Origin: Escherichia coli
Lineage (GTDB): Bacteria; Pseudomonadota; Gammaproteobacteria; Enterobacterales; Enterobacteriaceae
Assembly: GCF_003991155.1 (NCBI RefSeq)
Contig: NZ_CP031293.1
DNA length: 64,000 bases
Reading direction: 5' to 3' (one strand)
Positions 14,102 through 38,037 of this stretch are shown here, in pieces; position 1 is the stretch's first letter, and each line of letters starts with the position of its first letter. The translations under genes and the position numbers were made by a program. Below the pieces are notes generated by a model, which saw nothing but the letters and a program-made list of their open reading frames with translations, did not search any database and had not been told where the DNA came from.

Positions 14102-14371
14102 ACGACTGATAACTCCCGATGATAATTAACAGGAGAGTAGATATTTTACGCATTAATTAATGTGATGATTGTCGCATTTGATAGCGCTATCTGATAACGC
14201 TACCAATCTTTGTGATAGCGCTATCATTTCTCTGCCGCCATGCTTTGGCTATATTCGGTTCCTGCATATACAATGCAACAGGATATTTGCTACCGTGGGC
14301 AAAAACTGGAAAGAGTAATGGTGAAATAAAAGTAATGAAAACAGCTGGTTGTAATTATCCATGGAGTCGAA

Positions 14372-16145: not shown

Positions 16146-16781
16146 ATGCTCTTCAGTATGCATATACGAATTGACTATCTGGCGGATAAAAACTGCTTTA
16201 CAGAACTGAATGAATCTCCACGCCTTCGCCGGCAGTGGCAGGATGTTCTGGAGGAGTGCCGGCAGACAGAGGCCGGGCCAGAAGAACGGCTGCGTATTGC
16301 TCTGCTGAATGTGGATTACGTCACCAGTTTTGAACTGCCTTTTCGCTTGTTGCTTACTCGTACACCACAACTGATTGCCGCGCTGCGTGAAGAATGGGAC
16401 ATCAGCCAGAAAAATGTGGTGTTCAACGATAAACGCTTTGGCTGCGTGTACAACCTGAAGGCCAGCCTTTCGGGTGGGCCGGATACATTCCGGTATCATC
16501 TGTCTCACCGTATTCGGCGGGTGGTTGCGAATGAAAACACATCATCGCCATACCAACTGATTGCCCGGGAAGTGAAAGCGCCCCGTCAACGGCTGAAGTA
16601 TGCGCTGGAGACAGGATTGCAGGTGAGCGCACTGGACGGCCTGTTCTGGTTCGGCAGCCAGCGCATTGCGGCAGATATCCTGAGGCTGAGAAAGTACGGG
16701 ATGCGGATTGCGACGGCTTCTGTGGACGTGTATGACAACATAACCGGAACAACTCGTCATATCCCTGTATATTACTCCTGA
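16146..16781 (+). CDS. Hypothetical protein upstream of cdiB, possible C-terminal DNA-binding region
   Basis: The ORF-track start at 16122 is a TTG; the first ATG is at 16146, with weak ribosome-binding-site support. I recognise no family; a possible helix-turn-helix-like stretch is at the C-terminus (GSQRIAADILRLRKYGMRIAT). Confidence 0.4.
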   Translation: MLFSMHIRIDYLADKNCFTELNESPRLRRQWQDVLEECRQTEAGPEERLRIALLNVDYVTSFELPFRLLLTRTPQLIAALREEWDISQKNVVFNDKRFGCVYNLKASLSGGPDTFRYHLSHRIRRVVANENTSSPYQLIAREVKAPRQRLKYALETGLQVSALDGLFWFGSQRIAADILRLRKYGMRIATASVDVYDNITGTTRHIPVYYS

Positions 16782-17002
16782 CGCAAAATAGTCTGTGGGG
16801 GCCGGAGCATGACCGGTAACCGGAACAGGGTTTTGCCCTCGTCACAGCCAAAAATACGTCCTTTATCACATTTCTTCGATTTTTCCTGATATTTTACCGG
16901 GTTACTGTTCAAAAATGCTTCTCTTCTGATGTAAATTTCTTTACTGACACTTTTTGACATGAATTTACACTGGCATCACACAGGCCAGAATACGGGGAGA
17001 AC

Positions 17003-18775
17003 ATGCAGCACCGGCAGAAAAACATTCTGACGAAAACGTCCCTTTTATCCCGTGCGTTGTCTGTCCCCTGTTGTGATATGTTCCGGCGCGGCTCTCCGTG
17101 GATATGCTATCTCTCCCTCTCCGTTTTTTCTGGTTGTTTCATCCCCGCATTTTCGTCTCCGGCAGCCATGCTGTCTCCGGGTGACCGCAGTGCAATTCAG
17201 CAGCAACAGCAGCAGTTGCTGGATGAAAACCAGCGTCAGCGTGATGCGCTGGAGCGCAGTGCGCCGCTGACCATCACGCCGTCTCCGGAAACGTCTGCCG
17301 GTACTGAAGGTCCCTGCTTTACGGTGTCAAGCATTGTTGTCAGTGGGGCCACCCGACTGACGTCTGCAGAAACCGACAGACTGGTGGCACCGTGGGTGAA
17401 TCAGTGTCTGAATATCACGGGGCTGACCGCGGTCACGGATGCCGTGACGGACGGCTATATACGCCGGGGATATATCACCAGCCGGGCCTTTCTGACAGAG
17501 CAGGACCTTTCAGGGGGCGTACTGCACATAACGGTCATGGAAGGCAGGCTGCAGCAAATCCGGGCGGAAGGCGCTGACCTTCCTGCCCGCACCCTGAAGA
17601 TGGTTTTCCCGGGAATGGAGGGGAAGGTTCTGAACCTGCGGGATATTGAGCAGGGGATGGAGCAGATTAATCGTCTGCGTACGGAGCCGGTACAGATTGA
17701 AATATCGCCCGGTGACCGTGAGGGATGGTCGGTGGTGACACTGACGGCATTGCCGGAATGGCCTGTCACAGGGAGCGTGGGCATCGACAACAGCGGGCAG
17801 AAGAATACCGGTACGGGGCAGTTAAATGGTGTCCTTTCCTTTAATAATCCTCTGGGGCTGGCTGACAACTGGTTTGTCAGCGGGGGACGGAGCAGTGACT
17901 TTTCGGTGTCACATGATGCGAGGAATTTTGCCGCCGGTGTCAGTCTGCCGTATGGCTATACCCTGGTGGATTACACGTATTCATGGAGTGACTACCTCAG
18001 CACCATTGATAACCGGGGCTGGCGGTGGCGTTCCACGGGAGACCTGCAGACTCACCGGCTGGGACTGTCGCATGTCCTGTTCCGTAACGGGGACATGAAG
18101 ACAGCACTGACCGGAGGTCTGCAGCACCGCATTATTCACAATTATCTGGATGATGTTCTGCTTCAGGGCAGCAGCCGTAAACTCACTTCATTTTCTGTCG
18201 GGCTGAATCACACACACAAGTTTCTGGGTGGTGTCGGAACACTGAATCCGGTATTCACACGGGGGATGCCCTGGTTCGGCGCAGAAAGCGACCACGGGAA
18301 AAGGGGAGACCTGCCCGTAAATCAGTTCCGGAAATGGTCGGTGAGTGCCAGTTTTCAGCGCCCCGTCACGGACAGGGTGTGGTGGCTGACCAGCGCTTAT
18401 GCCCAGTGGTCACCGGACCGTCTTCATGGTGTGGAACAACTGAGCCTCGGGGGTGAGAGTTCAGTGCGTGGCTTTAAGGAGCAGTATATCTCCGGTAATA
18501 ACGGCGGTTATCTGCGGAATGAGCTGTCCTGGTCTCTGTTCTCCCTGCCATATGTGGGGACAGTCCGTGCAGTGACTGCACTGGACGGCGGCTGGCTGCA
18601 CTCTGACAGAGATGACCCGTACTCGTCCGGCACGCTGTGGGGTGCTGCTGCCGGGCTCAGCACCACCAGTGGTCATGTTTCCGGTTCGTTCACTGCCGGA
18701 CTGCCTCTGGTTTACCCGGACTGGCTTGCCCCTGACCATCTCACGGTTTACTGGCGCGTTGCCGTCGCGTTTTAA
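17003..18775 (+). CDS. cdiB: Two-partner secretion outer-membrane transporter (TpsB; ShlB/FhaC/HecB family)
   Basis: 590 aa with POTRA-containing TpsB character, GGGGAG ribosome-binding site, immediately upstream of a 3288-aa TpsA-type exoprotein with a VENN motif. Confidence 0.9.
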   Translation: MQHRQKNILTKTSLLSRALSVPCCDMFRRGSPWICYLSLSVFSGCFIPAFSSPAAMLSPGDRSAIQQQQQQLLDENQRQRDALERSAPLTITPSPETSAGTEGPCFTVSSIVVSGATRLTSAETDRLVAPWVNQCLNITGLTAVTDAVTDGYIRRGYITSRAFLTEQDLSGGVLHITVMEGRLQQIRAEGADLPARTLKMVFPGMEGKVLNLRDIEQGMEQINRLRTEPVQIEISPGDREGWSVVTLTALPEWPVTGSVGIDNSGQKNTGTGQLNGVLSFNNPLGLADNWFVSGGRSSDFSVSHDARNFAAGVSLPYGYTLVDYTYSWSDYLSTIDNRGWRWRSTGDLQTHRLGLSHVLFRNGDMKTALTGGLQHRIIHNYLDDVLLQGSSRKLTSFSVGLNHTHKFLGGVGTLNPVFTRGMPWFGAESDHGKRGDLPVNQFRKWSVSASFQRPVTDRVWWLTSAYAQWSPDRLHGVEQLSLGGESSVRGFKEQYISGNNGGYLRNELSWSLFSLPYVGTVRAVTALDGGWLHSDRDDPYSSGTLWGAAAGLSTTSGHVSGSFTAGLPLVYPDWLAPDHLTVYWRVAVAF

Positions 18776-18787
18776 GGGATTATTACC

Positions 18788-21700
18788 ATGCATCAGCCTC
18801 CCGTTCGCTTCACTTACCGCCTGCTGAGTTACCTTATCAGTACGATTATCGCCGGGCAGCCGTTGTTACCGGCTGTGGGGGCCGTCATCACCCCACAAAA
18901 CGGGGCTGGAATGGATAAAGCGGCAAATGGTGTGCCGGTCGTGAACATTGCCACGCCGAACGGGGCCGGGATTTCGCATAACCGGTTTACGGATTACAAC
19001 GTCGGGAAGGAAGGGCTGATTCTCAATAATGCCACCGGTAAGCTTAATCCGACGCAGCTTGGTGGACTGATACAGAATAACCCGAACCTGAAAGCGGGCG
19101 GGGAAGCGAAGGGTATCATCAACGAAGTGACCGGCGGTAAGCGCTCACTGCTGCAGGGCTATACGGAAGTGGCCGGCAAAGCGGCGAATGTGATGGTTGC
19201 CAACCCGTATGGTATCACCTGTGACGGCTGTGGTTTTATCAACACGCCGCACGCGACGCTCACCACAGGCAAACCTGTGATGAATGCCGACGGCAGCCTG
19301 CAGGCGCTGGAGGTGACTGAAGGCAGTATCACCATCAATGGCGCGGGCCTGGACGGCACCCGGAGCGATGCCGTATCCATTATTGCCCGTGCAACGGAAG
19401 TGAATGCCGCGCTTCATGCGAAGGATTTAACTGTCACTGCAGGCGCTAACCGGATAACTGCAGATGGTCGCGTCAGTGCCCTGAAGGGCGAAGGTGATGT
19501 GCCGAAAGTTGCCGTTGATACCGGCGCGCTCGGTGGAATGTACGCCAGGCGTATTCATCTGACCTCCACTGAAAGTGGTGTCGGGGTTAATCTGGGTAAC
19601 CTTTATGCCCGCGAGGGCGATATCACCCTGGATGCCAGCGGCAGACTGACTGTCAACAACAGTCTCGCCACGGGGGCCGTCACTGCAAAAGGTCAGGGCG
19701 TCACCTTAACCGGCGACCATAAAGCGGGAGGTAACCTGAGCGTCAGCAGCCGGAGCGATATCGTTCTCAGCAATGGAACGCTTAACAGCGACAAGGACCT
19801 CAGCCTGACCGCCGGCGGCAGAATCACTCAACAGAATGAAAAACTGACTGCCGGCCGGGATGTAACGCTTGCCGCGAAAAACATCACACAGGATACCGCC
19901 AGCCAGATTAACGCGGCCCGCGATATCGTGACTGTCGCCAGTGACACGCTGACAACACAGGGACAGATAACCGCCGGGCAGAATCTCACGGCCAGCGCCA
20001 CCACGCTGACACAGGACGGAATATTGCTGGCGAAAGGTCATGCGGGACTCGATGCCGGCACGCTGAATAACAGTGGTGCTGTTCAGGGGGCTTCCCTGAC
20101 GCTCGGCAGTACAACGCTCAGCAACAGTGGCTCCCTGCTCAGTGGCGGTCCCCTGACCGTGAATACCCGCGACTTTACCCAGAGCGGCCGCACTGGCGCG
20201 AAGGGCAAAGTGGATATCACGGCCAGTGGGAAACTGACCAGTACAGGTTCGCTGGTGAGCGATGATGTACTGGTGCTGAAGGCGCAGGATGTGACACAGA
20301 ACGGTGTGCTGTCCGGCGGCAAAGGGCTGACGGTCAGTGCGCAGGCGCTGAGCTCCGGTAAAAAATCGGTCACCCACAGCGATGCTGCGATGACGCTGAA
20401 TGTGACAACAGTGGCGCTGGACGGGGAAAACAGTGCCGGTGACACCCTCCGGGTTCAGGCAGACAAACTGAGTACCGCAGCGGGCGCACAGCTTCAGAGC
20501 GGTAAAAATCTCAGCATCAACGCCAGAGATGCACGTCTTGCAGGTACGCAGGCAGCACAACAGACCATGGCGGTGAACGCCAGTGAAAAGCTCACCCACA
20601 GCGGGAAAAGCAGCGCCCCGTCGCTCAGCCTCAGTGCGCCGGAACTGACCAGCAGCGGTGTGCTTGTTGGTTCCGCCCTGAATACACAGTCACAGACCCT
20701 GACCAACAGTGGTCTGTTGCAGGGGGAGGCCTCACTCACCGTTAACACACAGAGGCTTGATAATCAGCAGAACGGCACGCTGTACAGTGCTGCAGACCTG
20801 ACGCTGGATATACCGGACATCCGCAACAGCGGGCTTATCACCGGTGATAATGGTTTAACGTTAAACACTGCCTCCCTCAGCAATCCGGGAAAAATCATCG
20901 CTGACACGCTGAACGTCAGGGCGACCACGCTGGATGGTGATGGTCTGTTGCAGGGCGCCGGTGCACTGGCGCTTGCAGGCGACACCCTCTCACAGGGCCG
21001 TAACGGACGCTGGCTGACGGCGGGCGACCTCTCCCTCCGGGGTAAAACACTGCATACCGCAGGGACCACGCAGGGACAGAATCTCACCGTGCAGGCGGAC
21101 AGATGGGCGAACAGTGGTTCCGTGCTGGCAACCGGTAACCTTACTGCTTCGGCAACCGGTCAGTTGACCAGTACCGGCGATATCATGAGCCAGGGTGACA
21201 CCACGCTGAAAGCAGCCACCATGGACAACCGGGGCAGTCTGCTTTCGGCCGGCACGCTCTCCCTTGATGGAAACTCACTGGATAACAGCGGCACTGTCCA
21301 GGGTAACCATGTCACGATTCGCCAGAACAGTGTCACCAACAGTGGCACGCTCACCGGGATAGCCGCGCTGACGCTTGCCGCCCGTATGGCATCCCCTCAA
21401 CCTGCGCTGATGAATAACGGAGGTTCATTGCTGACCAGCGGCGATCTGACAATCACCGCAGGCAGTATTACCAGTTCCGGACACTGGCAGGGCAAACGGG
21501 TGCTGATCACCGCAGACAGTCTGGCAAACAGCGGGGCGATCCAGGCGGCTGACAGCCTGACTGCACGTCTGACGGGTGAGCTCGTCAGCACAGCGGGCAG
21601 CAAAGTCACCTCGAACGGTGAAATGGCGCTCAGTGCACTGAATTTAAGCAACAGCGGACAATGGATTGCAAAAAATCTGACCCTGAAGGCGAACTCACTG

Positions 21701-24700
21701 ACCAGTGCGGGTGACATCACCGGTGTGGATACTCTCACGCTCACGGTGAATCAGACGCTGAACAATCAGGCGAACGGAAAACTGCTCAGTGCAGGTGTGC
21801 TGACGCTGAAGGCAGACAGTGTCACAAACGACGGGCAATTACAGGGAAATGCCACCACCATCACGGCAGGACAACTCACAAACGGCGGGCATCTGCAGGG
21901 CGAAACGCTGACGCTGGCCGCCTCCGGTGGCGTGAACAACCGTTCCGGTGGTGTTCTGATGAGCCGGAATGCACTGAATGTCAGTACTGCGACCCTGAGT
22001 AACCAGGGCACGATACAGGGTGGTGGCGGGGTTTCCCTGAACGCCACAGACCGTCTGCAGAACGACGGCAAAATCCTTTCCGGCAGTAACCTCACGCTGA
22101 CGGCGCAGTTGCTGGCGAACACCGGCAGCGGACTGGTACAGGCTGCCACCCTGCTGCTGGATGTGGTGAATACTGTCAACGGCGGACGCGTACTTGCCAC
22201 CGGCAGTGCCGACGTTAAAGGAACCACGCTGAATAATACCGGTACGCTTCAGGGGGCGGACCTGCTGGTGAATTACCACACATTCAGCAACAGCGGTACC
22301 CTGCTGGGAACCTCCGGGCTTGGCGTCAAGGGCAGTTCACTGCTGCAAAATGGTACAGGGCGGCTGTACAGTGCAGGCAACCTGCTGCTTGACGCTCAGG
22401 ACTTCAGTGGTCAGGGGCAGGTGGTGGCCACCGGTGATGTCACACTGAAACTGATTGCTGCCCTCACGAATCATGGTACCCTGGCCGCAGGGAAAACCCT
22501 TTCCGTCACGTCGCAAAATGCCATCACCAACGGCGGTGTGATGCAGGGTGATGCCATGGTGCTCGGTGCCGGAGAGGCATTCACCAACAATGGAATGCTG
22601 ACTGCCGGTAAAGGCAACAGTGTTTTCAGCGCACAGCGTCTTTTCCTTAACGCACCGGGTTCACTTCAGGCCGGTGGCGATGTGAGTCTGAACAGCCGGA
22701 GTGATATCACCATCAGTGGTTTTACCGGCACGGCAGGCCGTCTGACAATGAATGTGGCCGGTACCCTGCTGAACAGTGCGCTGATTTATGCGGGGAATAA
22801 CCTGAAGCTGTTTACAGACCGTCTGCATAACCAGCATGGTGATATCCTGGCCGGCAACAGTCTGTGGGTACAGAAGGATGCTTCCGGCGGTGCAAACACA
22901 GAGATTATCAATACCTCCGGGAATATTGAGACGCATCAGGGCGATATTGTTGTAAGGACCGGGCATCTTCTGAACCAGCGGGAGGGATTTTCTGCCACAA
23001 CAACAACCCGGACTAACCCCTCATCCATTCAGGGAATGGGAAATGCTCTGGTTGATATTCCCCTTTCCCTTCTTCCTGACGGCAGCTATGGCTATTTCAC
23101 CCGTGAAGTTGAAAATCAGCACGGTACGCCCTGCAACGGGCACGGGGCATGCAATATCACAATGGATACGCTTTATTATTACGCTCCGTTTGCTGACAGT
23201 GCCACACAGCGCTTTCTCAGCAGCCAGAACATCACAACAGTAACCGGTGCTGATAATCCGGCAGGCCGCATTGCGTCAGGGCGTAATCTTTCTGCTGAGG
23301 CTGAACGACTGGAAAACCGGGCGTCATTTATCCTGGCGAATGGGGATATCGCACTTTCGGGCAGAGAGTTAAGCAATCAGAGCTGGCAGACGGGGACAGA
23401 GAATGAATATCTGGTATACCGCTACGACCCGAAAACGTTTTACGGTAGCTATGCCACAGGCTCTCTGGATAAACTGCCCCTGCTGTCACCGGAATTTGAA
23501 AACAATACCATCAGATTTTCACTGGATGGCCGGGAAAAAGATTACACGCCCGGTAAGACGTATTATTCCGTTATTCAGGCGGGCGGGGATGTTAAGACCC
23601 GTTTTACCAGCAGTATCAATAACGGAACAACCACTGCACATGCAGGTAGTGTCAGTCCGGTGGTCTCTGCACCGGTACTGAATACGTTAAGTCAGCAGAC
23701 CGGCGGAGACAGTCTGACACAGACAGCGCTGCAGCAGTATGAGCCGGTGGTGGTTGGCTCTCCGCAATGGCACGATGAACTGGCAGGTGCCCTGAAAAAT
23801 ATTGCCGGAGGTTCGCCACTGACCGGTCAGACCGGTATCAGTGATGACTGGCCACTGCCTTCCGGCAACAATGGATACCTGGTTCCGTCCACGGACCCGG
23901 ACAGTCCGTATCTGATTACGGTGAACCCGAAACTGGATGGTCTCGGACAGGTGGACAGCCATTTGTTTGCCGGACTGTATGAGCTTCTTGGAGCGAAACC
24001 GGGTCAGGCGCCACGTGAAACGGCTCCGTCGTATACCGATGAAAAACAGTTTCTGGGCTCATCGTATTTTCTTGACCGCCTCGGGCTGAAACCGGAAAAA
24101 GATTATCGTTTCCTGGGGGATGCGGTCTTTGATACCCGGTATGTCAGTAACGCGGTGCTGAGCCGGACGGGTTCACGTTATCTCAACGGACTGGGTTCAG
24201 ACACGGAACAGATGCGGTATCTGATGGATAACGCGGCCAGACAACAGAAAGGACTGGGATTAGAGTTTGGTGTGGCGCTGACAGCTGAACAGATTGCTCA
24301 GCTTGACGGCAGCATACTGTGGTGGGAGTCAGCCACCATCAACGGACAGACAGTCATGGTCCCGAAACTGTATCTGTCGCCGGAAGATATCACCCTGCAT
24401 AACGGCAGCGTTATCAGCGGGAACAACGTGCAACTTGCGGGCGGCAATATCACCAACAGCGGCGGCAGCATCAACGCACAGAACGACCTCTCGCTCGACA
24501 GTTCCGGCTATATCGACAACCTGAATGCGGGGCTGATAAGCGCGGGCGGTAGCCTGGACCTGAGCGCCATCGGGGATATCAGCAATATCAGCTCAGTCAT
24601 CAGCGGTAAAACCGTACAACTGGAAAGCGTGAGTGGCAACATCAGCAATATCACCCGGCGTCAGCAATGGAATGCGGGCAGTGACAGCCAATATGGTGGT

Positions 24701-27700
24701 GTGCATCTCAGCGGTACGGACACCGGTCCGGTTGCGACCATTAAAGGCACTGATTCACTTTCGCTGGATGCAGGGAAAAACATTGATATTACCGGGGCAA
24801 CGGTCTCGTCCGGTGGAGACCTTGGAATGTCTGCGGGTAATGATATCAACATTGCCGCAAACCTGATAAGTGGGAGCAAAAGTCAGTCCGGTTTCTGGCA
24901 CACTGATGACAACAGTTCATCATCCACCACCTCACAGGGCAGCAGCATCAGCGCCGGCGGTAACCTGGCGATGGCTGCAGGCCATAATCTGGATGTCACG
25001 GCATCCTCTGTTTCTGCCGGGCACAGCGCCCTGCTTTCTGCAGGTAACGACCTGAGTCTGAATGCAGTCAGGGAAAGCAAAAACAGTCGCAACGGCAGGT
25101 CAGAAAGTCATGAAAGCCACGCAGCTGTGTCCACGGTGACAGCGGGCGATAACTTCCTCCTTGTTGCCGGTCGTGATATTGCCAGTCAGGCTGCCGGTAT
25201 GGCTGCGGAAAATAACGTGGTCATCCGGGGCGGACGTGATGTGAACCTGGTGGCAGAGTCTGCCGGCGCAGGCGACAGCTATACGTCGAAGAAAAAGAAA
25301 GAGATTAACGAGACAGTCCGTCAGCAGGGAACGGAAATCGCCAGCGGTGGTGACACCACCGTCAACGCAGGACGGGATATCACCGCTGTTGCGTCATCCG
25401 TTACCGCAACCGGCAATATCAGCGTGAATGCCGGTCGTGATGTTGCCCTGACCACGGCGACAGAAAGTGACTATCACTATCTGGAAACGAAGAAAAAAAG
25501 CGGAGGTTTTCTCAGTAAGAAAACCACCCGCACCATCAGTGAGGACAGTGCCACCCGTGAAGCAGGCTCCCTGCTGTCGGGGAACCGCGTGACCGTTAAC
25601 GCCGGTGATAACCTGACGGTAGAGGGTTCGGATGTGGTGGCTGACCGGGATGTGTCACTGGCGGCGGGTAACCATGTTGATGTTCTTGCTGCCACCAGTA
25701 CAGATACGTCCTGGCGCTTTAAGGAAACGAAGAAATCCGGTCTGATGGGTACCGGCGGTATTGGTTTCACCATTGGCAGCAGTAAGACAACGCACGACCG
25801 GCGCGAGGCCGGGACAACGCAGAGTCAGAGTGCCAGCACCATCGGCTCCACTGCCGGTAATGTCAGTATTACCGCGGGCAAACAGGCTCATATCAGCGGT
25901 TCGGATGTGATTGCGAACCGGGATATCAGCATTACCGGTGACAGTGTGGTGGTTGACCCGGGGCATGACCGTCGTACTGTGGACGAAAAATTTGAGCAGA
26001 AGAAAAGCGGGCTGACGGTTGCCCTTTCCGGCACGGTGGGCAGTGCCATCAATAATGCGGTTACCAGTGCACAGGAGACGAAGGAGAGCAGTGACAGCCG
26101 TCTGAAAGCCCTGCAGGCCACAAAGACAGCGCTGTCTGGTGTGCAGGCCGGACAGGCTGCGACAATGGCCTCCGCAACCGGTGACCCGAATGCGATGGGA
26201 GTCAGCCTGTCGCTCACCACCCAGAAATCGAAATCACAACAACATTCTGAAAGTAACACAGTATCCGGCAGTACGCTGAATGCCGGGAATAATCTGTCTG
26301 TTGTCGCAACCGGTAAAAACAGGGGCGATAACCGCGGAGATATTGTGATTGCCGGAAGCCAGCTTAAGGCCGGTGGTAACACAAGCCTGGATGCCGCGAA
26401 TGATATTCTGTTGAGTGGCGCCGCAAACACACAAAAAACAACGGGCAGGAACAGCAGCAGTGGCGGTGGCGTGGGTGTCAGTATCGGTGCCGGTGGTAAC
26501 GGTGCCGGTATCAGCGTCTTTGCCGGCGTTAATGCGGCAAAAGGCAGCGAGAAAGGTAACGGTACTGAGTGGACTGAAACCACAACAGACAGCGGTAAAA
26601 CCGTCACCATCAACAGTGGTCGGGATACGGTACTGAACGGTGCTCAGGTCAACGGCAACAGGATTATCGCCGATGTGGGCCACGACCTGCTGATAAGCAG
26701 CCAGCAGGACACCAGTAAGTACGACAGTAAACAGACCAGCGTGGCTGCCGGCGGCAGTTTTACCTTTGGCTCCATGACCGGCTCAGGTTACATCGCTGCC
26801 TCCCGGGATAAGATGAAGAGCCGCTTTGACTCCGTTGCTGAACAAACCGGAATGTTTGCCGGTGATGGTGGCTTCGACATTACAGTGGGCAGACATACCC
26901 AACTGGATGGTGCGGTGATTGCCTCCACTGCCACACCGGATAAAAACCACCTGGATACCGGAACGCTGGGGTTCAGTGACCTTCACAACGAAGCGGATTA
27001 TAAAGTCAGTCACAGTGGAATCAGTCTGAGCGGTGGTGGCAGCTTCGGGGATAAATTTCAGGGTAACATGCCGGGTGGCATGATATCCGCCGGAGGTCAC
27101 AGCGGACATGCGGAAGGAACGACTCAGGCCGCAGTGGCAGAAGGCACTATCACCATCCGGGACAGGGACAATCAGAAGCAGAATCTGGCGAACCTGAGCC
27201 GTGACCCTGCGCACGCTAATGACAGTATCAGCCCGATATTTGACAAGGAGAAAGAGCAGAGGCGTCTGCAGACAGTGGGGCTTATCAGTGACATAGGCAG
27301 TCAGGTGGCGGATATTGCGCGTACACAGGGAGAACTGAATGCGTTGAAGGCCGCGAAGGAAGCAACCGGCGAAACACTTCCTGCTAATGCAACAGAGAAA
27401 CAACGTCAGGAATATCTTGCGAAACTGCGTGACACGCAGGCTTACAGGAATGAAATGGCGAAGTATGGTACCGGCAGTGAAATTCAGCGGGGTATCCAGG
27501 CCGCGACAGCCGCGCTTCAGGGACTGGCGGGTGGTAATTTAGCGGGTGCTCTGGCCGGAGCTTCTGCACCGGAACTGGCGCATCTGCTGAAATCAACAGA
27601 AAAAGACCCGGCAGTAAACGCCATTGCTCACGCCATTCTGGGCGGTACAGTAGCGGCAATGCAGGGTAATAATGTTGCTGCTGGTGCAGCAGGCGCAGCA

Positions 27701-28654
27701 ACGGGAGAGCTGGCAGCCAGAGCGATTGCCGGAATGCTGTATCCGGGAGTGAAGCAGTCAGACCTCAGTGAAGAGCAGAAGCAGACGATAAGTACGCTGG
27801 CAACTGTGTCAGCAGGGCTGGCCGGCGGTCTAACCGGAAACAGCACCGCATCAGCAGCAGTGGGAGCACAGAGCGGGAAGAATGCTGTTGAGAATAACTA
27901 CCTGAGCGTGTCTGAAAAGACAGAACTTGAGATAGCAAAACAGACGCTTAAAAACAGTAAAGATCCGGCAGAGCGTGAAAAGGCACAGCAGAAATATGAT
28001 GCATTGCTTGAAAAAGATATTGCCAGTGATAAGGAGGTTATTGCTGCCTGTAGTAATGGTAATGCGAGTAGTTCAGCGTGTGCCAGCGCAAGACTGAAAG
28101 TTATTGCGTCGAAAGAAGGGTACGAAGATGGCCCTTATAACTCGAAATACAGCCAGCAATACGCTGATGCGTATGGTCAGATAGTCAATCTCCTCGATAT
28201 CACCAGTGTTGATGCACAGAATCAGCAGCAGGTGAAAAACGCCATGATTAACTATTTCATGGTCACCAAAGGGGTGGATCGTCAGACCGCAGAAAGCTAC
28301 ACCGAAACAACGCAGGGCTTGGAGATCATTGCGGCTTCGGTAACGCCTCTTATAGGGCAAGCTGCATCAAATAAATTAAGCTACCTTGGTATTGGGAAAA
28401 AGATATCCTTTGATGGTGATTTTTATACTGTAGATGGAATGAAATTCAGCAAAAGTTATTATGAGAAATTATGGGAGCAAGGCAGACCTGCGCCATTCGT
28501 GCAAGCAAGAGAAGTGTTGAATAGCAATCCAAAAATTGAGCCGGATCCTAGAGGCGCACCTGGCTACTTAAGATATGAAGGTGCAGGTCTTGAAATGATC
28601 TATAACCCGAAAACGGGACAAGTTGGTCATATTCAACCAGTCAAGGTTAAATAA
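18788..28654 (+). CDS. cdiA: Contact-dependent growth inhibition exoprotein CdiA (3288 aa)
   Basis: N-terminal two-partner-secretion transport domain ([27 protein letters not shown]), long filamentous-haemagglutinin-type repeat tract, glycine-rich pre-toxin region and the VENN motif ([15 protein letters not shown]) about 255 aa from the C-terminus. Confidence 0.9.
27887..28654 (+). other. CdiA-CT toxin region (VENN to stop); enzymatic class unassigned
   Basis: VENN codons at 27887..27898, in frame with cdiA. The final domain (...[33 protein letters not shown]...GHIQPVKVK) matches no toxin I can name and does not end in GYGI. Confidence 0.7.
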
Positions 28655-28667
28655 AAAGAGGAAGTAA

Positions 28668-28988
28668 ATGGATATTTGGCCTGAATTTCAACGAGATCTT
28701 GAGATGTATCGAGATGTTGTTTTATCAATAAAACGTAACCTTCGGTTGTATGAGGAGTGTATTGAATCGTTAGTTCATCAGATCGGAAGCACCAATTTTG
28801 ATAATGCGCAGCCTCTATTTGATGACCTCTTTCGTATGCAATCTGAACTTGCTACTATGTTATACAAATATGAATATAAGCCAGGAAAAAGGATACAAGA
28901 TTTAATATATCATCTGGACAGGGATGATTTTTACTCAAGAAAATATTGGCATAAAAAATTCAGTGATGGATTGGCATGGCCTGAATAA
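28668..28988 (+). CDS. cdiI: Putative CdiI immunity protein cognate to the CdiA-CT
   Basis: 106-aa ORF starting 13 bp after the cdiA stop with an AGAGGAAG ribosome-binding site; visibly more AT-rich than cdiA, as expected for an exchangeable toxin/immunity cassette. The assignment is positional. Confidence 0.7.
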   Translation: MDIWPEFQRDLEMYRDVVLSIKRNLRLYEECIESLVHQIGSTNFDNAQPLFDDLFRMQSELATMLYKYEYKPGKRIQDLIYHLDRDDFYSRKYWHKKFSDGLAWPE

Positions 28989-30219: not shown

Positions 30220-31338
30220 TTATATTACTGATGTATGTTTAATGATCTCACTGATTTTCACTTTCCTGTCCTGCGATCTTGAAAGAGTGGCAGCATCAGC
30301 AGTAGCAATCGCCGACATGGCCGCCTCACCATTGAGAAGGTCAATATAATCTTCTTCAGGTTTTGCACCACTGAGGATATTATGGAGGAATAACGTCTCC
30401 TTTCTTATTAAACTGGCAAGCCATAATGGTGTTTTTTTTCCAGGATGACCATATGCTATAGCGCCATCCATTTCTGAGGTCATATTGCCTTTCCGACGAT
30501 CATCATCTTCTTCTTGTGTTTCATGGACCAAAAAATGCTTTGTCTGACCGCCAATCCTAAGTGACCCTGCTGTTTCTTGCATATCAATTTTAATAGAGCC
30601 TTTAGTTCCATTGATGATGACATAATGTTCTGGCCAGTTAAATGCACTCCCCCACTCTAAGGTTGCTAGTTTTCCTGACGGGAATTCCAAGGTCATAAAT
30701 AACATATCATCTTCATTGCCAAACCCTAGACCAGAATGAGCTAAATTTCCACCAATCATAGTAACCGTCTCTGGTATTTCTCCAAGTAAATGCTGAACAC
30801 AATCTAACTCATGTATATGATGATATAGATGTCCACCAGATTGTTCTTTCATCTTTTTCCAGGAAAGTCTCTCCTGTTTGTTTTCCCAGCCATTTCTCTT
30901 GGTATGACATGATAATATTTCGCCGATAACACCTTCTTTAATTAACTTCCGTGCATATTGAACTCCATTGAAAAAATTCATAATATGCCCAGCCATAAAG
31001 GTCACACCAGCTTCTTTACACGCTTTGACCATATCCACACAATCTTCATAACTTAATGCAATTGGTTTTTCACAAAAAACATGCTTCTTATTCTTTGCTG
31101 CTTTAATTACTGGATCTTTATGCAGATAATTTGGGGTGGCTACGATCACACAATCGACTAATTTACTTGAAACTAAAGCATCCAAGCTTGACATATTGAT
31201 ACATTGCAATTCACGGGCAATAGTTTCTCCATTTTCAGGATCGTATACACATGTAATTTTTGCATTATCATGCATATTCATAAAACGAGCTAATTCAGCG
31301 CCAAAGTATCCAACACCAACAACGCCATAATTAATCAT
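30220..31338 (-). CDS. yjhC: Gfo/Idh/MocA-family NAD(P)-dependent oxidoreductase, YjhC (NanY)-like
   Basis: 372 aa with N-terminal Rossmann motif (GVVGVGYFG); GGAGG ribosome-binding site; immediately downstream of a 405-aa NanT-like MFS gene. Both lengths match my recollection of YjhB/YjhC. Confidence 0.7.
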   Translation of the reverse strand: MINYGVVGVGYFGAELARFMNMHDNAKITCVYDPENGETIARELQCINMSSLDALVSSKLVDCVIVATPNYLHKDPVIKAAKNKKHVFCEKPIALSYEDCVDMVKACKEAGVTFMAGHIMNFFNGVQYARKLIKEGVIGEILSCHTKRNGWENKQERLSWKKMKEQSGGHLYHHIHELDCVQHLLGEIPETVTMIGGNLAHSGLGFGNEDDMLFMTLEFPSGKLATLEWGSAFNWPEHYVIINGTKGSIKIDMQETAGSLRIGGQTKHFLVHETQEEDDDRRKGNMTSEMDGAIAYGHPGKKTPLWLASLIRKETLFLHNILSGAKPEEDYIDLLNGEAAMSAIATADAATLSRSQDRKVKISEIIKHTSVI

Positions 31339-31349
31339 AAAGCCTCCAA

Positions 31350-32567
31350 TTATTTAGCCACGGATAGTTTATAAATTTTACCTGGAATATCAAAACCAAC
31401 TAACAAAATTAATAAGGCAGAGAATGCAACCGTAACAATGAATAATGAAACACCTAAGCCATAATATCTAGAAATGTATGTAGCTAATACAGGTGCGGCC
31501 ATTCCTCCAGTTGCCCCTAAGTTATAAATAAGACCGGTCCCTAATCCTCTTAATTTTGTTGGAAAGTAATCATATATAAATTTTGGAACCAACCCTGCAA
31601 TACCTAAATTTGTAAACATTAATCCAAAGAGACATAATCCTATAAGAAAAGAGTTTTTCACAGAAATAAAAAAAAGAGGACAAAGGAAAATAAATGAAGT
31701 TATTAGACCAACTACAAATGTTTTTTTTACACCAATCTTATCACCAACAAAACCAAAAAATATTGTACCTGTCAGTGTACCTAAACCTGCTATTGTCATC
31801 AGAGTTGAAATAACCACTGTATTAACTCCATTATCTGCTAGGTAGGAAGGAAGTAGTCCGTTTATCGGCCAGTTTGCACCAAATAGACAAAAACAGACGA
31901 GGAAAACGATCATAGAGATTGAAAGATGTGGTTTTCTGAAGACAGACAAAAATGTTGATTTATCCTTATATTTATCTTCAATCCACTCCTGACTTTCTGG
32001 AGCACTTTTTCTGATCCAAAGAACTAGTAAAACTGGTAACAGGCCTATAAAAAAAGAGTTTCTCCATCCATATACTTCAGCAAACTGAGGGATTATTTGT
32101 GCCGCAATAATATTTCCAACAGAAAAACCACTTACCAAAAAAGCACTAGCTTTAGATTGAAGATTTTTAGGCCAACTTTCTACTGCATAAGTTGAAGCAC
32201 ATGCATATTCACCAGACATCCCTAAGCCAACAATAAAACGGCAAACTGCGAGCATATATAAGTTTGTAGCAATACCGCTAAGGCCTGTTCCGACTGAGTA
32301 AATGATAATTGCCCACATCATCATTGGCTTACGCCCATATTTATCAGCCATGGCACCAAAAAAACCGCCCCCAATAGGTCTGGCTATGAAGGCCACTGTC
32401 CCTATTAAAGTGGCCTGAATATCCGTAATGCCAAGATCTGCTTTTATAATATGAAGAATGTAAAATATCATCATAAAATCAAAGCCATCAAATACATATC
32501 CAAGCCATGCAGAAAAAAGAGCTTTCCGTTGTGGTGGATTAACTTGTTTATACCATACTGTTGCCAT
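31350..32567 (-). CDS. yjhB: MFS transporter of the sialic acid (NanT) family, YjhB (NanX)-like
   Basis: Start placed at ATG 32567 (MATVWYKQ...) with an AGGAAA ribosome-binding site, giving 405 aa. Major-facilitator-superfamily signature; a NanR-type operator lies upstream. Confidence 0.7.
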   Translation of the reverse strand: MATVWYKQVNPPQRKALFSAWLGYVFDGFDFMMIFYILHIIKADLGITDIQATLIGTVAFIARPIGGGFFGAMADKYGRKPMMMWAIIIYSVGTGLSGIATNLYMLAVCRFIVGLGMSGEYACASTYAVESWPKNLQSKASAFLVSGFSVGNIIAAQIIPQFAEVYGWRNSFFIGLLPVLLVLWIRKSAPESQEWIEDKYKDKSTFLSVFRKPHLSISMIVFLVCFCLFGANWPINGLLPSYLADNGVNTVVISTLMTIAGLGTLTGTIFFGFVGDKIGVKKTFVVGLITSFIFLCPLFFISVKNSFLIGLCLFGLMFTNLGIAGLVPKFIYDYFPTKLRGLGTGLIYNLGATGGMAAPVLATYISRYYGLGVSLFIVTVAFSALLILLVGFDIPGKIYKLSVAK

Positions 32568-32976
32568 ATTTGTTTCCTGTGTTATTCTAATACAGCCCTT
32601 AAAGTAAATATTAGGGAGCCTCAACAATATCCAGCAATAATTATATTGTCTTCAAATACGCCAGTACTATTAATTGTTATCAATACCTAATCAGTACAAT
32701 CTTTTTCTCCATTTCTTCTTAACATATTTCACGCTATGAAAGATAAAACTGATACCCACCTTCAGTTTTGGGTCACCATCAAAAAAAATGTTCGCCAGAT
32801 ATTCCACCACTGGCACAGTTCAACCCTGCTTCAAAAATTGACTTATTCATTGTGCTCATTTTCGTAGTCCGTTCAGGTTGAATAAAACTCCCTTAGTCAA
32901 ATGAGGAAAGACTGAGAGGTTATTACTTTAGCTTACGTTATAGCTGTTTTCCTTTGCAGTATTTCTTTGCTTTTCT

Positions 32977-33000
32977 GTATACCTTTATACCTGTTATACC
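32977..33000. promoter_or_regulatory. NanR-type operator: three GGTATA hexamers (minus strand reads GGTATAACAGGTATAAAGGTATAC)
   Basis: Read directly from the sequence, about 410 bp upstream of the yjhB-like start. The tri-repeat GGTATA arrangement is the known NanR binding architecture. Confidence 0.5.
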
Positions 33001-33597
33001 AGATCAAAAAACAAGCAATCCACATAACAAAACGCGTTTTGTTACTGATGTCACAAATTGAGCATATTTTTGTATCTGATAGTTTGTTACAAACACCACA
33101 ACCAAGATGCCTATTTCGTTTCAGCATCAACTGTTAAATTATCTGGTTGCCAACGAGAATACTGAGCTTTTTTGTCCCTAAGACTGACCGTCAACGCAAC
33201 AATCTTTGACTGTTTGACATTGTCATGCCCGCAGGCCAGCGGATCTAAAGACATCAGACTGCTTGCATCAGCCAGTTGCGTATCTGGCTATGTCCCTTAA
33301 TTGGTAAGGGTTCGAGGAACTCAACATTAACGCATTTTTCAGCGCATCACCGACAGTGTATATGAACGATTGCACTCTGACGATGGTTGATTTATTTGGT
33401 TGCATAGGGGCTAGCTAGTCTGGTACCGGAGGCTGGATCTGAAGTACTGACCCTAGGAATAACGCCGGGCTGACTCATATTCTGACCCATTGTCAGCCCG
33501 CGTGTTTACTGCTCTAGCTCATTTCCTGTTGTCAGGCATTCAATTCCCAACTGCAGGTTATGGCCCGGTGAGCGAACACCTGACGGCAGGTATCACT

Positions 33598-33775
33598 CAC
33601 CCGGAGAAGGTAAATCCCTCAAGGGGCAGCAACTCTGCCAGTCGCTCCTCCGGCCACTCCGGCAGACGTGTCAGGACGTCTGTCAGCCAGGCATGTGGCT
33701 CCAGACCGTTGCGTTTCGCGGTTTCCAGCAAGCTCATTATTTGCGCAGCGCGTTCTCCCGCCATACGACAGCCGT
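33598..33775 (-). mobile_element. IS66-family transposase (TnpC) C-terminal fragment
   Basis: The minus strand encodes ...GERAAQIMSLLETAKRNGLEPHAWLTDVLTRLPEWPEERLAELLPLEGFTFSG*, paralleling the C-terminus of the intact IS66 TnpC in this window (...[40 protein letters not shown]...). Confidence 0.5.
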
Positions 33776-33797
33776 CAGAGCAGTGCGTCAGCGGGCG

Positions 33798-35642
33798 GCA
33801 GTTTTACCTGGGGTGCTGGCAGAGGTGGTTATGGCAGCGCCAGCCGCGATAATATCCACAGCAACTATGATTCCGTTAATGAGCAGAGCGGTATTTTCGC
33901 AGGCCGGGGTTATTTTGATATCACTGTGGGGAATCACACTCAGCTCGATGGTGCGGTGATTGCTTCGACAGCACCTGCCGACAGGAACTCGCTGGACACC
34001 GGTACTCTGGGCTGGTCGGATATCCATAACCAGGCAGACTATAAAGCCAGCTATACCGGAATCAGTTTATCGGGTGGCTCAGGGATGTCAGCCAGCCAGA
34101 TGGTGGCCTCAAATGCAATAGCCGGTGCGGCGAACGCACTTACCGGTATGTCCGGCAGCAGTGGACATGCTGAAGGTACCACGTCATCCGCCATCAGCGG
34201 CGGAAATCTCATTATCCGTGATAAGGAGAGTCAGAAGCAGGATATTGCCGGGCTCAGCCGGGACCCGGAAAACGCCAACGGCAGCATTGCACCGATATTT
34301 GACAAGGAGAAAGAACAGAAGCGTCTGCAGGAAGCGCAGGTTATCAGCCAGATTAGCGGTCAGATGAGTAATATCGTAATGACGTATGGCGAAACTGAAG
34401 CGATGAAAGCAGCCTGGAAAGAGCATCCTGGCATGAGCGATGCACAGTTGCGGGAGACTCCGGAATACAGAGAGGTCATGAAAGGCTACGGTACGGGCAG
34501 TTCGCCGCAGATGGTGGTACAGGCCATCACGGGCGTGCTGGGCGGACTGAATGCAGGGAACCCGGGGCAGGTATTGGCGGGCGGTCTGAATCCGGCAGTG
34601 GCACAGCTTATAAAACAGTCCACCGGCGATAACCGGGAAGCAAACCTGATGGCTCACGCAGTCTGGGGTGCACTTGCCGCACAACTGGGCGGAAACAATG
34701 CGGCTTCCGGTGCTGCTGGGGCATTCAGTGGTGAACTTGCAGCCTGGTATATCATTGATAACTACTACGGTGGTCGTACCGATAACCTGAGTGAACAGGA
34801 ACGTCAGCAAATCAGCATGCTGGCCACCATTGCCTCTGGTATTGCGGGGGGACTTGCAGGCAACAGTACGGCGTCTGCCGGTACGGGTGCACAGGCAGGA
34901 ACTCGGCTGAAAACAATATGCTGAACGTGATAGCCACTGAAACAGCAGCTAATACGGCAGCAGCAATAGCTGGTGCTACAGGTAATGCCAGTAAGGATAC
35001 CGGGAATGATAATAGCTGGGATACCGGTGGTGTTACGCTGGCTACGGGAACAGTGTGCTGTACGTGATCCGAGTCGCGATGGCACCCGAGGACCGGGGCA
35101 TGTGCTGAATGGCGACAATACAGACGGAAACAAACAGCCGAATCTGGGCAAAGACGTAGCGAGCGCAACGGATAAGGATAAAGCTGAGCTTGGTGGTGCA
35201 GGTGCTGGAATACCGGGGGGGATGGGGACCGGATAATGAAGAAAAAGCCCGTCATCAGGAGGTTCAGCAACAACGATTTGATGAACTGAGTAAAATATAT
35301 GATAAAAGTCACCCGGCCGGAGAGTTAACGGTGGATGGGCAGACTATCAGGCAGAGTTCGGTAAGTAACCGTTATGGTACGACGAAAGTGTTTGAAAGCC
35401 AGACTTTGACGGATAAACAGATCCACAATTACGCACAGCAACTGGCAGGCGATACACCGCTGAAAGAGGTAAAATCGGGAATCTACACGTCTAAACTATC
35501 AGATGGTTCGGTAATAACACTTAGAAACATATCTACATCAGAAGGTCAGACAGGCGCTCGTTGGACTATAGATATTCGTAATAACCAAAAGCTTACTGAA
35601 CTGGGGAATAAATATTCACGTGTGGAGATTAAGTTCAAATGA
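33798..35642 (+). pseudogene. Orphan cdiA-CT module 1: displaced 3' fragment of a cdiA gene with frameshifts
   Basis: DNA and protein homology to the pre-toxin region of the main cdiA begins at about 33798 ([51 protein letters not shown]). The VENN-equivalent (AENN, 34906..34917) lies in a different frame from the upstream ORF, and the toxin part is split over at least three frames. Confidence 0.6.
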
Positions 35643-35995
35643 TTACTGAGTTAAGTGAAAGAGAATACAAGGAGTTGACAGACGCTGCAGAGGGACAGAC
35701 TCTTGATGCTATTTTGTGTTATTCAGTTCCTGATATTCACCCTGCAGAGTTTAGTTTTGCAGATAGAAGAGAAATCTTTTTTTGGGCATTAACCCGTCTT
35801 CTGAAAGAAGGGCGTATCAAACTCGCCAAGCACGGTAAGTTTTTGGAAGGAAGTGTTGACGAGCAGGTTGAGCGTTTTCGACAGGCATTTCCGAAAACAG
35901 AAGAAGAGATGGAAGACGGTATCTGGTTTTTTGATGAGAGTTGTCCGGGGGGGGCTGTTTGGGTGCTTGAAGATGGCTCTCTCGAATGGACCTGA
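35639..35995 (+). CDS. Putative orphan CdiI immunity protein (module 1)
   Basis: Intact 118-aa ORF whose ATG overlaps the stop of the orphan toxin frame (ATGA overlap), the arrangement typical of toxin/immunity pairs. Acidic small protein; no family recognised. Confidence 0.55.
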
Positions 35996-37112
35996 TAACC
36001 CCTTCACAGCGCAGGATGCGGCGCAGCGAGCGTATAACAACGATATGGCGGCCTCAGTTTTTGGTACCGGAGGGAACGATACAGGCTACAACGGCAGCGG
36101 TACAGGGACTGGCCGGCGGTAATCTGAGTGCAGCCCTGGCAGGTGGTGCAGCACCGTATCTGGCCGAAGTGGTGAAAACCATGACCACAGACCCGGTTAC
36201 CGGTGAGGTGAATAAGGCTGCAAATGTGGCTGCTCATGCCGTGGTGAATGCCGCACTGGCTGTGGCACAGGGAAATAACGCTCTTGCCGGTGCTGTAGGT
36301 GCAGCCACCGGCGAGGTGGTGGGAATGATAGCCACACAGATGTACGGTAAGCCGGTGAGTGAACTGAGCGAGACAGAGAAGCAGACGGTCTCGACACTGG
36401 CAACGGTTGCTGCTGGCCTGGCCGGTGGTCTGGTGGGCGACTCGGGGCTTCAGCGGTAGCCGGCGCACAGTCAGGTAAGACGACTGTTGAGAATAATTTA
36501 CTTGGCGGTAGTGAAGATGCTCAGGCTGCGTGGATACGCCAGCATGGTATCGACATGGCAACATGTGCAGAAAACCCTTCTGGTGCCGCCTGCCAGAAAG
36601 CAATGAATGAGAGGGATGCTGTAGGGCTGGCTCTGGCAACAGGTACAGTGGCACTACTCCCCGGTAGTGCTCAGGCTGTGTGGGGACTGGGAGCAAGTGC
36701 GAATGCTGGTATCAGTTATCTGGCTGATGGTACTGTAGATCCGACAAACGCAGCCATTGCAGGCTGGGTGAATGTGTTCAGCATGGGTAATGGCCTGGCG
36801 GGGACTGTGGGCTGGAATGCGGCAGGTGGTGCGCTGGGTAACTGGATTGACAACAAAGATCCTCTGTCTGGTGCAATTTCAAATGGTATCGGTTCTGCTG
36901 CCGGGTATGGTATCGGTAAAGGTATTACTTGGGGGACAGATAATATTACGAATGCTGTAGGAAAATGGGTGACAAATGGCTGGGATCCTAAGTACGATCC
37001 AACATGGATAAAATATGCTGAAGTAAATCGTAACGATATCATTCGAGAAGGCATGAAACCGAGCAATGTTCTTGGAACTGCTGGAGATATTGGCGGTTCT
37101 ATAGGATCCTAG
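35996..37112 (+). pseudogene. Orphan cdiA-CT module 2: cdiA 3' fragment with a frameshift; glycine-rich predicted membrane-active C-terminal domain; no immunity gene follows
   Basis: Homology to the main cdiA pre-toxin region ([28 protein letters not shown] ... [20 protein letters not shown]) runs up to a VENN motif (TTVENNLLGG) reached only after a frameshift near 36455. The C-terminal roughly 185 aa are Gly/Ala-rich with GxxxG-like spacing. Confidence 0.5.
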
Positions 37113-37162
37113 CTAGGTGGAAAAGTAACTTAGTCTGCAAGGATCAGGAGTTACAGACGGCA

Positions 37163-37348
37163 TTGGCTTTACGCTTACCGTTTTTTTACGCGCCAGAACA
37201 AGACTATGATAGCGTTGCCCTTATAGACGATCACATTATCGTCCACTCCGACTTTGCGCAACTACTGTAGAGTGGTGTACTCCGCGGCTTCTTTGAGGAT
37301 CTCAACTTCCATGTTTTTTTACCCAGCAAGGGCTGTAACTCTTTTATT
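37163..37348. repeat. About 180-bp segment, copy B of the direct repeat (copy A at 11205..11383)
   Basis: See copy A. Here it overlaps the 3' end of the minus-strand OrfA-like gene 37231..37644. Confidence 0.6.
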
Positions 37349-37644
37349 TTTATAGCGGCAGCCAGTTCTGAGGCAGGAACAACATCCTCTCCGGTAGTAA
37401 CAGCAGCGAGACTTCCTTCCAGGTATTGTTTTTTCCACTTAAACAACAGACTGGGCTGAATACCATGCAAATGCGCCACATGGGACACCCTCATGCCAGG
37501 CTCCGTTGTCTGCTGAATAATGGCAATTTTTTCCTGAGGAGTTTTACGTTTACGAAGCTCCTGCCCCAGCAAAGTTCCAGTTATCTCAAAATTAGAACTA
37601 GTGTTAGACATATATCCAAGCCTATCTCTTATTTTAAGATACAT
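37231..37644 (-). mobile_element. IS3/IS66-type helix-turn-helix transposase accessory gene (OrfA-like), probably remnant
   Basis: HTH_Tnp-type region ([44 protein letters not shown]). A run of seven A (GGTAAAAAAACATGG) near the 3' end resembles a -1 frameshift slippery site, but the -1 frame ([16 protein letters not shown]) stops after 16 codons, so no transposase catalytic ORF follows. Confidence 0.5.
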
Positions 37645-37671
37645 CCACTGTCTGGCGTTTCAAGGGGCGCT

Positions 37672-38037
37672 TCAAGTTTTTTCAGACAGTTGAACTAGTA
37701 TACCAATACATTCTTGTTCAGCATCAATGATACATGCTTGGTATGTCGGGAAAAAAACAGAGGTTTCTTTTACAATATATCCACAATCATAACATTGATA
37801 CCATTTCCAGCCTTTTTCCTGAATATAGGAAATATGTAGAAAAAGTGGCAAGACCGATTCGTCTGAGTATCCCTGTTTTTTAGCATTTTCAATGCATAAC
37901 AATTGCGAATTATATGCGTTATCTGATTGAGACAAAAGATATCCATTTTTCTCATGACAATACCATCTCCATTTATTGTCATCAGTCTTATAAAATTTCC
38001 ATATTAATCTCTGATTTCCAGATATCTTATAAATCAT
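37672..38037 (-). CDS. YegP/DUF1508-like small protein (tandem repeat fold), hypothetical function
   Basis: ATG at 38037; the ORF-track start at 38049 is a GTG. Two repeats of the pattern W(K/R)W...NG...(S/A)...Y (RLIWKFYKTDDNKWRWYCHEKNGYLLSQSDNAY and KGWKWYQCYDCGYIVKETSVFFPTY). AT-rich gene. Confidence 0.45.
   Translation of the reverse strand: MIYKISGNQRLIWKFYKTDDNKWRWYCHEKNGYLLSQSDNAYNSQLLCIENAKKQGYSDESVLPLFLHISYIQEKGWKWYQCYDCGYIVKETSVFFPTYQACIIDAEQECIGILVQLSEKT

Follow-up and report, generated by a model that had tools for sequence, protein, structure and literature searches.

In the Escherichia coli DNA analysed here (a single stretch of 64,000 nucleotides, hereafter the window), an array of orphan cdiA-CT/cdiI modules begins directly at a remnant of an IS66-family transposase gene, which raises the question of whether the IS was the agent that brought the modules to this position. 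A sequence-only reading of the locus had taken the coincidence as a sign of IS-mediated rearrangement, by which the modules would have been displaced from a full-length cdiA. Based on alignments to both partners of the joint and on comparison with other genomes, we consider it probable that the contact is instead a passive scar, left by a single non-homologous joining of a resident ISEc49-like element to a second cdiA. The flagged feature is real, slightly mis-measured and over-interpreted; it is also ordinary, and already known in kind.

Orphan cdiA-CT modules that are interrupted by or associated with IS or transposase genes, and that keep varying lengths of upstream cdiA, have been described previously (Poole et al. 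2011, PMC3150448; Ruhe et al. 2016, PMC4927057). The array in the window resembles such systems in consisting of 5′-truncated PT-VENN cdiA fragments followed by a variable toxin region and a small immunity ORF (a cognate one is predicted for module 1), arranged in tandem in the orientation of cdiBAI and with IS debris alongside. Its cdiA 3′ fragment has no start codon, signal peptide or TPS domain and has an IS directly upstream, PT-VENN matches (PF04829) occur in both modules, and the array lies downstream of cdiBAI on the same strand, 5.1 kb past the stop of the resident cdiA. It differs from the known systems in being non-contiguous with the resident locus, since 5 kb with an IS4 fragment, nanY, nanX and the IS66 fragment on the opposite strand lie between them, and in the unusually long piece of cdiA (1.1 kb, of another cdiA class) retained by the first module, orphan-1. 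A further difference is that the orphan-1 toxin is frameshifted and that recombination with the resident cdiA is unlikely to reactivate it, because the cdiA piece comes from another class (longest exact match, 23 nt).

The setting is a mosaic pathogenicity island beside the kps capsule genes. Over positions 33000-34600 of the window, a number of complete E. coli chromosomes (Rb-3, MS 200-1 and ECONIH2 among them) are 100% identical, and NC101 is 99.9% identical. The gene order below is taken from the PGAP annotation of the identical Rb-3 region.

Left part: DeoR-rbsK-fucP-aldose epimerase, then a transposase remnant, PTS and LacI genes
17003-18775: cdiB
18788..28654, plus strand: resident full-length cdiA encoding 3288 aa, from which the orphan fragment does not derive (PGAP; alignments)
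After cdiA: cdiI, IS4 fragment, integrase-core fragment, ythA
30220-31338, minus strand: nanY
31350-32627, minus strand: nanX
30220..32627, minus strand: nanY-nanX module to which the IS66 copy appears to belong (PGAP; the order nanY-nanX-IS66 is the same in M9 and K-12)
After the IS66 fragment: two VENN-type cdiA fragments with small ORFs, a transposase fragment, pgtP/CBA, pap operon

Identity and extent of the IS66-family remnant

The IS-derived sequence at the left edge of the array comprises the following features.

33304..33764, minus strand: ISEc49-like IS66-family remnant, the 3′ 461 bp of the element (tnpC end, 3′ non-coding region, right inverted repeat), from the DNA match to the M9 element
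33597..33764, minus strand: tnpC 3′ coding fragment, codons 467-521 plus stop, without the DDE catalytic domain (PF13817; M9 alignment)
33304..33322, minus strand: right terminal inverted repeat (IRR), plus strand GTAAGGGTTCGAGGAACTC reading inward

The minus-strand ORF at 33597-33764 has 55 codons followed by TGA and translates as MAGERAAQIMSLLETAKRNGLEPHAWLTDVLTRLPEWPEERLAELLPLEGFTFSG. It matches DDE_Tnp_IS66_C (PF13817) in Pfam with E=1.2e-18 and 67 bits (cutoff 30), and 54 of its 55 residues are those of TnpC residues 467-521 (of 521 aa) from E. coli M9, a protein encoded by an intact tnpA-tnpB-tnpC element and containing PF13007, PF13005, PF03050 and PF13817. Alignment to IS66-family references thus returned significant similarity, the match is far beyond chance, and the earlier assignment of a minus-strand IS66-type TnpC C-terminus is borne out. 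The window has neither the PF03050 DDE domain (residues 187-470 in the complete TnpC) nor the tnpA-tnpB-tnpC organisation that the orthologous M9 copy shares with plasmid ISEc49. By these features the window appears to hold a fragment of an IS66-family member and no functional member.

The homology continues beyond the tnpC stop codon through approximately 290 bp of 3′ non-coding sequence and a terminal inverted repeat, as far as 33304. Over 33304-33764, the DNA is 98.8-99% identical to the intact element adjoining nanX in M9. Since an inverted-repeat search in the M9 element was uninformative as to its terminal repeats, the IS ends were defined from an ISEc49 copy cleanly inserted into an F plasmid, between traF and trbE; this copy has the 8-bp duplication CTTCATTC on both sides and the ends GTGTCGTTACGGGGAAGTC (IRL) and GTAAGCTTCCGGGGAACTC (IRR, reverse complement). 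The window IRR, read from 33304, agrees with the latter at 14 of 19 positions. Similarity of independent plasmid ISEc49-family copies ends at window positions 33299-33317, and the GC content steps from 0.39 to 0.53 at 33300. The extent claimed earlier, 33598..33775, therefore captured the coding part (33597-33764) and missed the rest of the remnant, while its last bases, 33765-33775, belong to cdiA.

The remnant matches chromosomal and F-plasmid ISEc49-like copies in the TnpC C-terminus, the 3′ non-coding region and the GTAAG... repeat, and differs from them in keeping the last 461 bp only, with a single end and without the DDE domain, tnpA or tnpB. A GTAA(G)-type terminal inverted repeat is present at the one surviving end, 33304; the left end is deleted, which leaves no paired 8-bp target-site duplication to compare in the window. 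With one inverted repeat and no catalytic domain, the stub is unable to move. In the identical RefSeq genomes, PGAP already annotates 33597-33773 on the minus strand as 'transposase domain-containing protein, missing N-terminus', that is, as an anonymous transposase pseudogene.

As a separate observation, the remnants in the window, M9 and K-12 lack, at approximately 33450 (33450/33451), a 65-bp 3′ non-coding stretch that is found in ISEc49 and in an O157 copy and that holds repeated GTCAGTAC(T/A)TC-like motifs.

The joint with cdiA and the parentage of the array

The joint and the first cdiA fragment are placed as follows.

33764..33765, no strand: novel IS66/cdiA joint with a 1-bp overlap, the T at 33764 being common to both parents (alignments to both parents)
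33764..34924, plus strand: orphan-1 cdiA fragment, 373 aa up to the pre-toxin/VENN region, the frame breaking just before A/VENN (PF04829 PT-VENN, E=6.9e-12)

Within the IS, the match to the intact element extends as far as ...CCCGCCAT (33757-33764), beyond which the parent IS continues with CTGCGAACC and the window with ACGACAGCC. Toward the array, the alignments with cdiA genes start at TAC GAC AGC (Y-D-S), whose T is that at 33764. In a sensitive search with 33765-34015 as query, the longest-matching full-length cdiA genes, from many genomes, align from the first base of the query. Bases 33765-33775 are thus derived from cdiA and the IS-derived sequence ends at 33764, with no room for the spacer of about 20 bp that had been placed before a cdiA homology beginning at 33798. 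That start was probably suggested by 33794-33809, a stretch of 16 nt that recurs unchanged in the resident cdiA.

The breakpoint is internal to both partners. The IS is interrupted at TnpC codon 467, 461 bp inside the element, and the cdiA breakpoint lies approximately 373 codons upstream of VENN, corresponding to CdiA residue 2540 in A19, 2522 in M9 and 2645 in the resident protein. Of 5,426 complete genomes, exactly 57 contain an identical junction; its context does not vary, and the breakpoint is the same in every junction-bearing genome among those listed. A junction made by the transposase, or an adjacent deletion promoted by the IS, would carry an IS terminus, and none is found at this joint; we therefore interpret it as the probable scar of an illegitimate (non-homologous) deletion or recombination and not as a product of transposition. 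In the best-supported reading, the IS was a substrate of the joining event, not its agent. The view that the array junction coincides with an IS scar holds in that the left edge of the array lies exactly at the IS66 scar, whereas the step from there to an IS-mediated rearrangement does not follow from a breakpoint internal to the IS.

The parentage of the fragment also departs from what had been proposed. The 373 aa encoded at 33764-34882 are 52% identical to resident CdiA (residues 2645-3023; 64% at the nucleotide level), compared with 90.6% to A19 CdiA (2540-2913) and 91% to M9 CdiA (2522-2895), the latter being the resident CdiA of M9 at the equivalent island position. Given 52% aa and 64% nt to the cdiA upstream against about 91% aa to the A19/M9 class, the array is best described as the apparent stump of a second, different cdiA lineage, and the idea that its modules were displaced from the full-length cdiA of this locus is abandoned. 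The fragment is itself a mosaic: 33764-34010 is only 56-86% identical to A19-class cdiA, and 34011-34960 is 90-100% identical. For the first ~250 bp, no full-length parent above ~72% identity was found among the 5,426 complete E. coli genomes, so the stump may include sequence of an unsampled cdiA lineage.

The IS66 copy beside nanX and the origin of the joint

Among other genomes, the same IS insertion, with the same flank beyond the IRR and with nanX-nanY-ythA as neighbours, occurs in three states. First, six mouse isolates (M6, M9, M11, M15, M18 and M19) have a complete IS next to nanX; in these, unrelated genes follow the IS and no array occupies that position. Second, it is cut at the equivalent of 33764 and fused to cdiA in the 57 genomes mentioned above. 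Third, in K-12 and many other genomes it is cut farther upstream, at approximately codon 430, with a 10-bp internal deletion and no adjoining cdiA. The comparison of carriers and non-carriers recommended earlier thus gave 57 carriers, and showed the IS without the array in M9-type genomes and K-12. Because the same insertion stands beside nanX in these array-less genomes, the IS66 copy appears to belong to the nanXY module and to predate its association with the array.

The leuX-associated island of K-12, known as KpLE2, in which the integrase adjoins tRNA-Leu, shares with the window the orthologous IS66 insertion by nanX (yjhB), the flank on the IRR side and the nanX-nanY-ythA module. It differs in retaining ~110-130 bp more of tnpC, in the 10-bp internal deletion, in an IS4 before nanX and in the other left-hand neighbour to which the remnant is joined, which is not cdiA. 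In full alignment the K-12 remnant is longer but more diverged than that of the window, and the two truncations were probably independent events. The intact M9 copy (locus L002, ~1766 to ~4460) has non-matching 8-bp flanks, ...ACAACAGC on the left and CAATTAAG on the right; therefore, the left neighbourhood of this copy is not its original target site, which shows that the M9 IS took part in rearrangements elsewhere.

In the reading that we regard as probable, an ISEc49-like element would have inserted beside nanX long ago, the insertion being common to K-12 and M9. One event in an ancestor of the 57 carriers would then have fused the IS, at TnpC codon 467, with a site inside a second cdiA, either as a deletion in situ or as the illegitimate end of an imported DNA segment. 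The losses would comprise the IS 5′ end (~2 kb, with tnpA, tnpB and most of tnpC) and any intervening DNA, together with cdiB and ~7.6 kb of the second cdiA, of which the 3′ 1.1 kb remains. We infer the order of these events, and an origin of the joint in place or by import, from the anatomy, breakpoints, parentage and distribution shown here. The pre-deletion state, an intact IS66 element followed by a full second cdi locus, occurs in no genome of the complete-genome set, so the joining event is reconstructed and not observed.

An earlier IS-dependent step, for example recombination between two ISEc49 copies, is conceivable. In such a two-step course, a second ISEc49 copy in or near the second cdiA would have recombined homologously with the copy beside nanX, and a small deletion would then have removed the IS 5′ part and the IS/cdiA border. 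ISEc49-like elements do land in cdi orphan regions, as an IRL+tnpA′ stub on a cdiA VENN fragment in M9 illustrates, the intact M9 copy is without a target duplication, and IS66-family debris is abundant in the island. Against this, two events are needed where one suffices and the joint retains no trace of the end of a second copy, which makes this course unlikely.

The sequence-only reading, that IS66 activity displaced toxin/immunity modules from the full-length cdiA of the locus, fares worse. It could draw on the exact position of the remnant at the 5′ edge of the array, on the known ties of orphan arrays to transposases (PMC4927057, PMC3150448) and on the unmatched flanks of the intact M9 copy as a sign of past IS-associated rearrangement. 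Yet 461 bp separate the joint from the IRR, and ~2 kb separate it from the IRL, with no end made by a transposase, the IS already stands beside nanX in array-less genomes, and the orphan fragment has the low similarity to the resident cdiA given above. The internal breakpoint and the parentage largely refute this explanation, which we hold to be quite improbable.

The right end of the array bears on two further possibilities. Its features are:

36000..36517, plus strand: orphan-2 cdiA fragment with PT-VENN, frameshifted (PF04829, E=7.4e-11; PGAP pseudogene)
36555..37112, plus strand: orphan-2 toxin-region ORF, 185 aa, Gly-rich (ORF list)
37126..37178, minus strand: unannotated 53-bp IRL stub of a second IS66-family element, GTAAGCGTAAAGCC facing away from the array (UMNK88 match)
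37182..37349, plus strand: second copy of the aldose-1-epimerase 3′ flank, a 91% direct repeat of 11213-11381
37278..37674, minus strand: IS3-family 5′ fragment (IRL and orfA, frameshifted), 92.8% to annotated IS3-family transposase genes (PGAP pseudogene)

The orphan-2 cdiA fragment shows weak nucleotide similarity to the resident cdiA, and no immunity ORF lies between the orphan-2 toxin ORF and the IS66 stub. The stretch homologous to orphan-2 in the orphan regions of Nissle 1917 and 83972 ends at 37129. The minus strand of 37126-37178 reads GTAAGCGTAAAGCCAATGCC..., and its 53 bp recur, at 94-100% and often unannotated, on numerous E. coli chromosomes and plasmids. In UMNK88 this sequence immediately precedes tnpA-tnpB-tnpC and forms the left terminus of an IS66-family element of another kind. 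A search for the stub in locus L004, where both ISEc49 and ISCro1 have copies, gave no match.

Two ways of uniting the ends of the array in a single element were considered and rejected. The stub and the tnpC remnant are not parts of one element, as their ends differ and the left end of the M9 element is unrelated to the stub. An array lying inside one IS66 element, with 37231-37644 on the minus strand as its tnpA, was also discarded when BLAST identified that segment as IS3-family.

The IS66-family stubs at both ends of the array, together with the ISEc49/cdiA stub in M9, hint at a non-random association. Because the array has two outward IS66-family ends and the unrelated M9 genome has a fusion of an ISEc49 left end to cdiA, one may imagine that IS66-family elements are recurrent and specific partners of cdiA-CT cassette turnover, although we give this idea very little credence. 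If it were true, toxin/immunity cassettes could be freed, and moved between cdi loci, preferentially through IS66 ends or through insertion followed by imprecise deletion. Least probable, with practically no chance of being right, is that 33304-37178 (3.9 kb) forms a cargo-carrying pseudo-element mobilisable in trans by its genuine, outward IS66-family termini of one orientation (IRR at 33304, IRL at 37178): such a composite unit is very unlikely because the ends belong to different IS66 subgroups (GTAAGGGTTCGAGG vs GTAAGCGTAAAGCC), no 8-bp duplication is common to the flanks (CTTAATTG on the left, CGTTTTTT on the right) and the left end with its flank occurs without the array in M9 and K-12, and the array itself is found in one genomic context only among the 5,426 complete E. 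coli genomes.

For the passive scar favored here, the island offers ample company. In addition to the seven transposase or integrase pseudogenes or fragments that PGAP annotates in the window, our analysis identified at least three more remnants. Since IS debris lies at virtually every module boundary, an IS scar at such a boundary is the rule in this island and no specific clue. On a larger scale, direct repeats of 169 bp (11213-11381 and 37182-37349, 91% identical) surround a 25.8-kb block containing PTS, LacI, cdiBAI, nanYX, the IS66 fragment and the orphan array. In strain 23CRST001, the epimerase gene is joined directly to the right-hand copy and the whole 25.8-kb block is missing, which points either to a fusion of two related islands or to loss of the block through recombination of one repeat with the other.

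The region next to the left-hand repeat also contains an IS911-like terminal repeat, TGTAGTGGTCAACAAAAACTGGTCACA (11384-11410), followed by a third IS66-family remnant at 11500-11870. This remnant has an IRL-like GTATGCGTAAACCGACTGC and a 94-aa TnpA-like ORF, 53% identical to the IS66-family TnpA of UMNK88.

State and significance of the orphan array

The coding capacity of the first module, apart from the cdiA fragment itself, is made up of three features.

33668..34924, plus strand: mechanical chimeric ORF with a GTG start, 418 aa, 32 antisense-IS66 codons fused in frame to cdiA (ORF list)
34900..35642, plus strand: orphan-1 toxin (CT-o1) region, spread over three reading frames (three-frame translation)
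35639..35995, plus strand: orphan-1 immunity gene cdiI-o1, intact, DUF596, 118 aa (PF04591, E=1.9e-17)

PGAP places the protein start of the chimeric ORF at 33926 instead and treats the orphan-1 toxin as separate 'hypothetical' CDSs. In the region where the toxin is broken (34880-35642), the VENN motif reads AENN and stands in a shifted frame. The start of cdiI-o1 overlaps the stop of the toxin ORF. Orphan-1 thus appears to have a decayed toxin and a retained immunity gene. No Pfam match was obtained for the CT-o1 ORF, the CT-o2 ORF or the resident cdiI. An intact homologue of CT-o1 is present in strain C11, in a cdiA locus labelled 'polymorphic toxin type 25'.

A promoter scan for an IS-derived outward promoter into the array detected no sigma-70-like site above background upstream, and the genes flanking the array lie on the opposite strand, so that expression of the array seems doubtful. 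The cdiA fragment is presumably not deployable, because it has no signal or TPS secretion domain and its toxin is frameshifted. The DUF596 immunity gene of module 1, the sole intact part, could still protect the cell if transcribed. RecA-dependent recombination has minimal homology requirements, and the longest exact match of the whole array to the resident cdiA being 23 nt, re-fusion with that gene is improbable. Considering this limited identity and the frameshifted toxin, it is less likely that the array is a reserve arsenal than that it is a fossil or, at most, a reservoir of immunity.

Beyond a refined RefSeq pseudogene, now with the full length of its IS remnant, a joint placed to the base and a further IS66 stub that had no annotation, the gain from this analysis is small. 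What had been called an orphan array is the apparent stump of a second cdiA lineage beyond nanXY, which calls for caution when toxin-switching potential is inferred from such arrays.

Two observations on locus L008 of M9 may be added. At 14030-14440, an ISEc49-like IRL with the first ~43 tnpA codons is fused to a cdiA VENN fragment of like orientation, forming a second, independent joint of internal IS to internal cdiA. At 15759-16859, the last orphan immunity protein, WP_000355946.1, is identical to that of the resident cdiI of the window (28668-28985), and its gene in M9 lies just before the same IS4 fragment; M9 thus shows the classical downstream displacement of a toxin/immunity pair that, in the window, still occupies the active position.
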